Below, one piece after another: positions 4,039-4,716 of a stretch of 64,000 nucleotides of DNA. Position 1 is the stretch's first letter. Every line of letters starts with the position of its first letter. Under the pieces are notes generated by a model that did no database searches, was not told the origin of the DNA, and was given only the letters and a program-made list of their open reading frames with translations. The stretch is from Isurus oxyrinchus (lineage: Eukaryota): assembly GCA_026770705.1 (NCBI GenBank), contig JANJGN010000026.1, forward strand, positions 5,580,001 through 5,644,000, given 5' to 3'. The translations under genes were made by a program, and so were the position numbers.

Positions 4039-4397
4039 CTAGTACGTGTAGCTCTGTACCTTCACCAAAATTATATCCATAATCATAAAACGCACAGTAA
4101 TAGACGGTCGAGTACTTCAGCTCCACTTGGTTGACCGGAGAGAGAAACGGTTCTTTGGGTCGACTCTAGAATGGGCGAAGCGGTCAGTGAACCCTGAGCA
4201 TCGGTGCAGTGCAACTCCATCATTGGTGCTTTTATGGGTCAGGATGGACACCGGTGGCTTCCACGGCGTCTGCCGGAACCAACGGAGCTACCTGTCCCCG
4301 ATACCTCTGTTCTTTACCGAGCAGTTTAAGGTGACGGACCATGCTGGGACGGCAAAGGCAGTTTCGGTTTGGAGCAGTTCGGGAAGTGGACAGACAC
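4039..4397 (-). pseudogene. Germline-joined V-J exon of an Ig-light-chain-like gene (pseudogene)
   Basis: Acceptor CTTACAG| at 4398, then SVCPLPELLQTETAFAVPAWSVTLNCSVKNRGIGDR*LRWFRQTPWKPPVSILTHKSTNDGVALHRCSGFTDRFAHSRVDPKNRFSL/(1-nt deletion)/VNQVELKYSTVYYCAFYDYGYNFGEGTELHVL, then G|GTAAGT donor. Canonical first Cys, WFRQ, YYC and FGXGT are present. TAG at 4288-4290, frameshift at ~4136. No RSS between V and J. Confidence 0.9.
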
Positions 4398-4521
4398 CTG
4401 TAAGGATCAGAGTAAAAGTGATGAGTTCAGGCCAAAGGGAAAGGATAAAGGTAGCATGGTACGTTTTGGGTCAATACACTTTTAAATCTTTACAGCAAAA
4501 TCAAATCAACATTTTACTCAC

Positions 4522-4567
4522 TGGAGAAACACGTTAGCAAGAGAAGCATCATATAAACTGTTTCCAT
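4522..4567 (-). pseudogene. Leader (signal peptide) exon of the VJ gene
   Basis: ATG at 4567, METVYMMLLLLTCFS, then a phase-1 donor A|GTGAGT. The 124-nt intron to the V exon gives the classic split Ig leader. Confidence 0.88.
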
Positions 4568-4654
4568 GGTTACACTGAGGTACGCGCAGTGATTGACAAA
4601 CTGGGACTGAGATTCTGACTGTCTGTGCAAAGGCAGAAATTGGGTGCGACACAG

Positions 4655-4716
4655 TTATAATCCAAACCAAGGAATCTTATTGGCTGTCAGCAACACGCCT
4701 TCAAAAATGCAAATTA
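4655..4716 (-). promoter_or_regulatory. Ig light-chain-type promoter: decamer/octamer, CCAAT, TATA-like
   Basis: On the gene strand: TAATTTGCAT (4707-4716, matches TNATTTGCAT) ~140 nt upstream of the ATG, CCAAT at 4679-4683 and TTATAA at 4655-4660. Confidence 0.8.

Follow-up and report, generated by a model that had tools for sequence, protein, structure and literature searches.

Does a V-J exon that lies already joined in a shark genome record an ancient act of the RAG recombinase, a gene that RAG never split, or simply an ordinary light-chain pseudogene? The question arises on contig C26 of genome G000, where the window (the whole 64,000-nucleotide stretch that was analysed, C26:5580001-5644000) carries a promoter decamer, a leader exon, a 124-nt intron and a single exon that runs from FR1 through YYC-AFYDYGYN-FGEGTELHVL to a GT splice donor, all on the minus strand (Table 1). 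These elements had been described in a first-pass annotation and were all confirmed, as was the lack of recombination signal sequences (RSS): a relaxed scan of both strands of positions 2866-4900 (heptamer 5/7, nonamer 6/9, spacers of 11-13 and 22-24) returned 0 sites. Retention of the leader intron likewise supports the annotation's argument against a retrocopy. Its word 'uninterrupted' is true of the exon, whereas the reading frame is broken by a TAG stop and by a 1-nt deletion, the two lesions implied by its advice to repair a stop and a frameshift.

Table 1. Features of the joined V-J gene copy in the window (window coordinates).
Feature	Position	Strand	Evidence
Light-chain-type decamer/octamer TAATTTGCAT	4716-4707	minus	sequence; 2 octamers in the whole 64 kb
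CCAAT-box-like element	4676..4685	minus	in 14/15 aligned family copies
Decayed TATA box	4652..4663	minus	TATAAAT in 12/14 copies; altered in window copy and sister
Coding part of the leader exon (46 nt, ATG at 4567, ends in phase 1)	4567-4522	minus	counterpart exon is spliced in the intact paralog's RNA contigs
Leader intron, GT..AG, 124 nt	4521-4398	minus	same intron removed in paralog transcript
Joined V-J exon, pseudogenised, 359 nt (360 in intact copy)	4397-4039	minus	intact paralog: Pfam V-set, E 2.7e-18
Premature TAG, end of CDR1	4290-4288	minus	not in sister copy
Frameshift, 1-nt deletion in FR3	4137-4138	minus	common to sister copy 180 kb away
CDR3 / V-J junction, 8 residues, without RSS remnant	4070..4093	minus	
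J part FGEGTELHVL	4039..4069	minus	followed by splice donor GT at 4038-4037
Junction of 4,671-bp deletion that took the C exon; 2-bp microhomology	2865..2866	n/a	

The window copy is a pseudogene: its frame has a stop and a frameshift, and, beyond what the first-pass annotation had noted, its TATA box has decayed and its C exon is deleted; it has no supportable function and serves only as a marker of its family. The stop rests on the assembly, as the listed contigs of run X4 over the V exon, a run that may be the assembly's own sample, show the letters of the sister copy. A short-read DNA contig of the same run (2779-3234) reads across the deletion junction with no gap. The C1-set exon that the annotation proposed to look for left of the window is absent from the 30 kb there because the 4,671-bp deletion removed it, and tblastn gave no C-domain match in C26:5550001-5644000, the 94 kb around the window copy. 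Compared with the intact copy (L007, on contig C326), the V exon of the window differs at 45/346 positions (13%) and the flanks at 44/494 (9%), an excess that is not significant (p = 0.07) and for which CpG does not account. Elsewhere, positions 28264-45110 and 62901-63998, 9516-14733, and 58348-60964 of the window are made up of a 58-bp satellite (~17 kb), a 37-39-bp minisatellite and 13-bp pyrimidine-rich arrays.

Searching the genome at the nucleotide level gave 15 candidate matches and all 15 proved real: the window copy, a sister at 99% identity 180 kb away, and 13 further copies at 86-91% on contigs C38, C42, C49, C100 and C326. The 14 full-length copies are joined without exception (0 split), and the fifteenth is cut in CDR1. 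Split V-RSS/RSS-J paralogs, which the annotation had suggested as a point of comparison, were therefore not found, and the comparison of CDR3 junctions that it had also suggested gave an identical length in 12 of the 14, with one extra base in the remaining two. A pattern search of the genome for the junction returned 13 sites, with 0 in controls. The V exon frame is open in 10 and the octamer is retained in 12 of the full-length copies, and a C1 exon lies ~3.7-3.9 kb downstream of the V-J exon in family copies. Twelve C exons were found: one is intact, eight carry the same 11-bp deletion and three have other frameshifts, among them the sister copy's, with a 2-nt insertion near its start. Only one copy in 15, that on C326, is intact. 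The lesion common to eight C exons suggests that the bulk of the amplification came after inactivation.

The 58 kb fetched around the C326 copy show collinearity of 80-88% with the region of the window and contain 7tm_1 (rhodopsin-family GPCR) genes. A rhodopsin-family GPCR fragment at 53407-54051 of the window (plus strand) and a 340-aa GPCR frame 14 kb to its left (L017:5501-6520) belong to this duplicated block, and ~14 kb of the window (12822-27012) are missing from the sister duplicate. Copies L003-L005 and L008-L010 combine an open VJ exon with a frameshifted C exon and could yield a V domain plus ~40 residues.

The intact C326 copy is the informative member of the family. Its leader, VJ and C exons make up the whole of a 1,000-nt contig in run X1, with 0 differences, and run X3, from the same sample, contains the same three pieces with a few differences. 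Neither run is on record as RNA, and both were taken as RNA because their contigs are spliced; this expression evidence comes from one sample, whose tissue is not recorded. The spliced frame encodes a leader, a V-set domain, a C1-set domain and a terminal cysteine, and the single C exon is followed by a stop and 3' UTR, with no membrane exon. A terminal cysteine, an octamer, a split leader and V/C interface motifs have roles in light chains. The C326 copy keeps all four; it has the general make-up of a light-chain gene, namely an octamer promoter, a split leader, a single V-set exon and a single C1-set exon that ends near a terminal cysteine, of which the window copy falls short for want of a C exon.

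The V-J join is a germline feature, neither somatic nor artefactual. In a second organism (organism B), a contig of run X7 reads through it with no break, and it is covered by raw WGS reads of run X22, from another sample, at a depth of 1-2 with no joint listed; run X21 did not cover the exons. Absence from germline or non-lymphoid reads was what the annotation had named as the sign of a somatic rearrangement.

Orthologous gene models were recovered from Chiloscyllium punctatum (P0001, 68% over V) and Mustelus asterias (P0002), both with an 8-residue CDR3; these orthologs are known as gene-model proteins, not as DNA, and the Mustelus model has an aberrant N-terminus. Protein searches returned these two orthologous models only, and a search of 50% representatives gave nothing closer. 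Between the family and the bamboo-shark ortholog, CDR1 and CDR2 are identical at 25/29 positions and the frameworks at 45/67. Canonical sigma-2 has the opposite, customary pattern: comparison with whale shark gave 11/26 and 12/26 for CDR1 and CDR2 and 53/67 and 52/67 for the frameworks. The difference in CDR1 and CDR2 conservation (Fisher p = 0.0014 and 0.0034) contrasts one ortholog pair with members of a multigene set that are not necessarily orthologous; inside the family, the difference between CDR and framework has p = 0.08. The greater conservation of CDR1 and CDR2 than in canonical sigma-2 suggests that selection may act on a fixed binding surface.

To place the family among light chains, sigma, lambda, kappa, IgH, TCR and UrIg-type domains mined from the same genome were used as tree rows. 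IgNAR-like C rows were labelled by their match to PDB entry 4q9c and UrIg-type V rows by their match to 9dmx; the other labels, apart from those of two named sigma-2 references, are presumptive and were given from recall and tree position. P0006, tried as a UrIg2-like sequence, was rejected since its PDB matches were IgH chains, and it was used as an IgH row. A PDB search with the intact V domain gave engineered mammalian-type antibody chains only, among the best 60 of 1,504 matches. The family forms its own supported clade, on a long stem, in both the V tree (47 rows) and the C tree (41 rows). Under the simpler LG+G4 model with pruned rows, it falls inside a broad sigma-2 group both in a V tree of 33 of the 47 rows (98/93; 14 rows were dropped, and 15 from the V set of the AU tests, as long branches or near-duplicates) and in a V+C tree of 24 light-chain rows that left out UrIg-type and IgH rows (97/94). 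Besides canonical sigma-2, the broad group takes in another shark lineage of joined genes (C783, Heptranchias) and joined chains from coelacanth, lungfish, caecilian and turtle. When UrIg-type, IgH and TCR rows are added, the deep branches collapse and the family sits in a polytomy; the 41-row C tree likewise shows no clear clustering with sigma-2.

Nesting inside canonical shark/ray sigma-2 (NS5/type I) was rejected by the AU test (p = 0.012 and 0.023 for V; 0.0047 and 4e-5 for V+C), and a position as sister to it is compatible (p = 0.31). Groupings with UrIg-type V (p = 0.48), with sigma (p = 0.32 and 0.22) and with lambda/kappa (p = 0.09 and 0.21) were not rejected. A grouping with the joined bony-vertebrate rows was not found in the trees, and its AU value is 0.26 (V+C). 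The nearest rows stand ~1.4-1.6 changes per column from the family. V identity reaches 43-46% to the closest sigma-2 rows, 43% to one ray sigma row and 30-33% to UrIg-type V, and C identity is 36-45% to sigma-2, 26-28% to UrIg-type domains and no more than 45% to any light-chain row outside the family. Within the genome, split sigma-2 clusters on C36 (11/11, with 12-spacer RSS) supply the nearest V genes; these clusters group with the two named references, P0154 (Igsigma-2, Heterodontus) and P0166 (XP_051901911, termed IgLS2 in PMC12227049); local V identity to the canonical sigma-2 of the genome is 45-51%, and the GFTDRF motif is common to both.

CDR1 has 8 residues (13 between Cys and Trp), as in canonical sigma-2 and as in the broad definition of that isotype (PMC5985310). 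CDR2 is 3 residues longer than in 5/5 canonical sigma-2 rows and 7 other joined rows, and exceeds the 7 residues that are given for all sigma-2 in the available part of PMC5985310. The junction (aromatic-D-S-G, 8 residues) resembles those of canonical sigma-2 in Squalus (10/10 for length), Pristis and Hemitrygon; its likeness to a sigma-2 V end and J start is one of protein, and the genome holds no split family member. The octamer is also found upstream of canonical sigma-2 and of two lambda genes. Taken together, the family behaves like a joined sigma-2 light chain. It is not filed as sigma-2, because its placement dissolves when distant outgroups are present, several other groupings are not rejected and its CDR2 is long. 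The ten Squalus sigma-2 chains (P0164, P0177-P0185) all have an 8-residue CDR3, and 8 of them share DSGYI, as if germline-joined.

Cartilaginous-fish sigma-2 (also sigma-cart, type I or NS5) is the closest known system, in line with the likeness in FR3 that the first-pass annotation had noted: it supplies the best matches in both domains (V 39-46%, C 36-45%) and has the family's 8-residue CDR1, GFTDRF-type FR3, 8-residue junction (in Squalus and ray chains) and V-J-C minicluster with an octamer. Joined sigma-2 genes are on record there, all of them in skates and one in nurse shark, in the accessible text of PMC5192425. Unlike canonical sigma-2, the family lies outside the shark/ray clade, has 3 more residues in CDR2, conserves its CDRs and lacks split members, and the canonical clusters of the same genome stand apart on C36. 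The annotation's condition for an ordinary germline-joined IgL gene was nesting in a described clade together with a normal CL exon. Paralogs do carry a normal single C1 exon, but nesting in canonical sigma-2 was rejected with both domains combined, so the gene is not simply ordinary.

Joined sigma-2 genes also occur in coelacanth, gar and turtles (PMC5985310, available part). Like the family, these have a single-exon VJ and one C exon and fall in the same broad clade in the two pruned trees; the gar copies flank the IgH locus, and family copies share contigs with IgH-type genes. They differ in having a shorter CDR2 and, in three rows measured, a CDR3 of 11 rather than 8 residues, and orthology is not implied by the trees. 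IgNAR-like C exons were seen on family contigs C26 (0.69 Mb, 23-40 Mb), C38, C42 and C100, and C26 further along holds IgH V genes, TCR V genes and two joined IgH VDJ exons (L077, L078).

For nurse shark kappa, germline joining by RAG is documented in the accessible part of PMC2193156, which assumes that joined genes do not revert. The joined kappa genes (NS4) described there resemble the family in their proposed germ-cell RAG origin, their retained octamer and the presence of some pseudogenes; they differ in that their joins are recent and lie among split sisters, whereas the join of the family is old, has no split sister and belongs to another isotype group. UrIg and UrIg2 share with it a single-exon VJ, a split leader and the absence of rearrangement (PMC12227049, PMC10751288, both in part). 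UrIg has three C1 domains and UrIg2 has more, plus a membrane anchor, in the same texts; the C326 transcript has one C1 exon, short of the three or more of that class, and a light-chain-like end, and identity of the family to the UrIg-type domains of the genome is low. Its C exon ends in a stop and is read into 3' UTR in the RNA contigs. PRARP and VJC1-type receptors are membrane-anchored VJ-C1 chains, and the family is not of that build.

Other joined genes were observed in the genome. L070 (G000:C783:146600-148760, minus strand) is another joined VJ-C gene of light-chain type that is intact, and its ortholog was seen in Heptranchias (P0031); importin-4-like exons lie ~30 kb downstream of it (E 2e-4), and no octamer was found within 700 bp upstream of its V. 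Profile searches with PSMB5 and importin put neither marker on C26, C326 or C783. Tandem joined VJ exons that are sigma-2-related in the V tree occur on C2 (L065-L068 and L141-L142, G000:C2:2.25-3.61 Mb) and C507 (L082), and have skate orthologs with several V domains each. On C36, a very divergent joined VJ exon lies beside a C1 exon (L134, G000:C36:3.99 Mb), and many more C1 exons are interleaved with the canonical sigma-2 clusters.

The account that we consider likely is that the window copy is the dead duplicate of a light-chain gene of leader-VJ-C structure that was joined by RAG once, long ago, in germ cells on a sigma-2-type cluster, and whose intact copy is predicted to be a fixed, innate-like chain. 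A germline RAG origin is economical because this genome has its related isotypes in split form (V genes of sigma, kappa, IgH, TCR and canonical sigma-2), because the junction is sigma-2-like and because there are documented precedents; no split member survives, so the join is not reconstructable base by base. The joining event would be older than the split between carpet sharks and ground sharks. The promoter, with its octamer and TATA box, is predicted to let B cells express the intact copy without prior light-chain rearrangement, and the terminal cysteine, as judged from established light-chain biology, would serve to pair the protein with a heavy chain. The conserved CDR1 and long CDR2 of the protein may contact an invariant ligand or an invariant heavy-chain partner. 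Dead copies presumably hitchhiked passively in duplicated blocks of at least 58 kb that also hold GPCR genes.

Several other readings deserve weighing. The family might be a light chain that RAG joined but that forms a separate isotype, or one derived from sigma, rather than an offshoot of sigma-2; its long stem in the V and C trees, the distance of its nearest rows, a CDR2 above the 7 residues given for all sigma-2 (PMC5985310, available part), its match to the ray sigma row and a grouping with sigma that the AU test did not reject would all fit. We regard this as unlikely in view of the broad sigma-2 placement in two pruned trees, the sigma-2-length CDR1, the best V and C scores to sigma-2 and the sigma-2-like junction motif. 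A light-chain-derived product that works without a heavy chain, for instance as a secreted homodimer or as a surrogate-like chain outside B cells, could be imagined from the divergent C domain (at most 45% to other light-chain rows), a transcript whose tissue is not recorded and copies on contigs with IgNAR-like C exons; the octamer promoter, split leader, terminal cysteine and V/C interface motifs kept in the C326 copy make it decidedly improbable. The notion that we are dealing with an ordinary recent NS5/sigma-2 pseudogene, a somatic rearrangement or an assembly artefact is barely credible. The GFTDRF motif and the 45-51% local V identity to canonical sigma-2 speak for it, and the window copy and its 98-99% sister could partly be two haplotypes, whereas canonical nesting was rejected in four AU tests, one junction recurs in 14 copies on 6 contigs and in other runs and species, and orthologs exist in two other genera.

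The first-pass annotation had also raised a relic of a never-split VJ family, which would mean that a V-J-C1 gene escaped RAG altogether and that its sigma-2 likeness reflects light-chain ancestry. It is true that none of the 14 full-length copies is split, that the AU test leaves a grouping with UrIg-type V open (p = 0.48), that joined genes prevail in the rest of the broad sigma-2 group, and that the window's contig also holds IgH and TCR V genes, reminiscent of the antigen-receptor complex described in the accessible text of PMC12227049. Other V families are split in the same genome, and therefore this reading requires either several RAG invasions or a root on the family branch. The family also has one C1 exon with a terminal cysteine, not three or more, an octamer promoter, and V domains nearer to sigma-2 (43-46%) than to UrIg-type domains (30-33%, with 26-28% for C), and germline joining is common in sharks. 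The case for a relic is thus weak, and we give it very little credence. The same slight credence goes to a wider version, in which the family, a joined gene linked to IPO4 (probably the C783 lineage) and the joined sigma-2 genes of bony vertebrates form a surviving radiation of VJ-C1 genes with a fixed ligand that RAG left unsplit, rearranging sigma-2 having arisen by RAG insertion.

The germline-joined light chain that we favour probably represents a lineage that is expressed, sigma-2-related and undescribed. A literature search that included the ortholog accessions and two peptide motifs found no description of it, in a field where much shark work sits in subscription journals. Table S1 of PMC12227049 lists 'IgL sigmaprime' and 'IgLsigma' in the antigen-receptor complex, either of which could be the family described here. 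Sharks are said to have four light-chain isotypes in the available part of the same paper. The family would add to these either a further, fifth deep lineage or a subtype of sigma-2 that separated long ago, one that is fixed in the genome and transcribed, and whose binding loops have changed less from one shark order to another than would be expected. An innate-like antibody chain that recognises a fixed target should show just such a pattern. Nurse shark offers a precedent for a pre-determined pair, in that IgM1gj occurs with a joined sigma-2 chain in neonates (PMC4279169, PMC5192425, both in part). Together with the IPO4-linked gene, the family suggests that fixed sigma-2-related chains occur more widely among sharks than the reviews consulted say.
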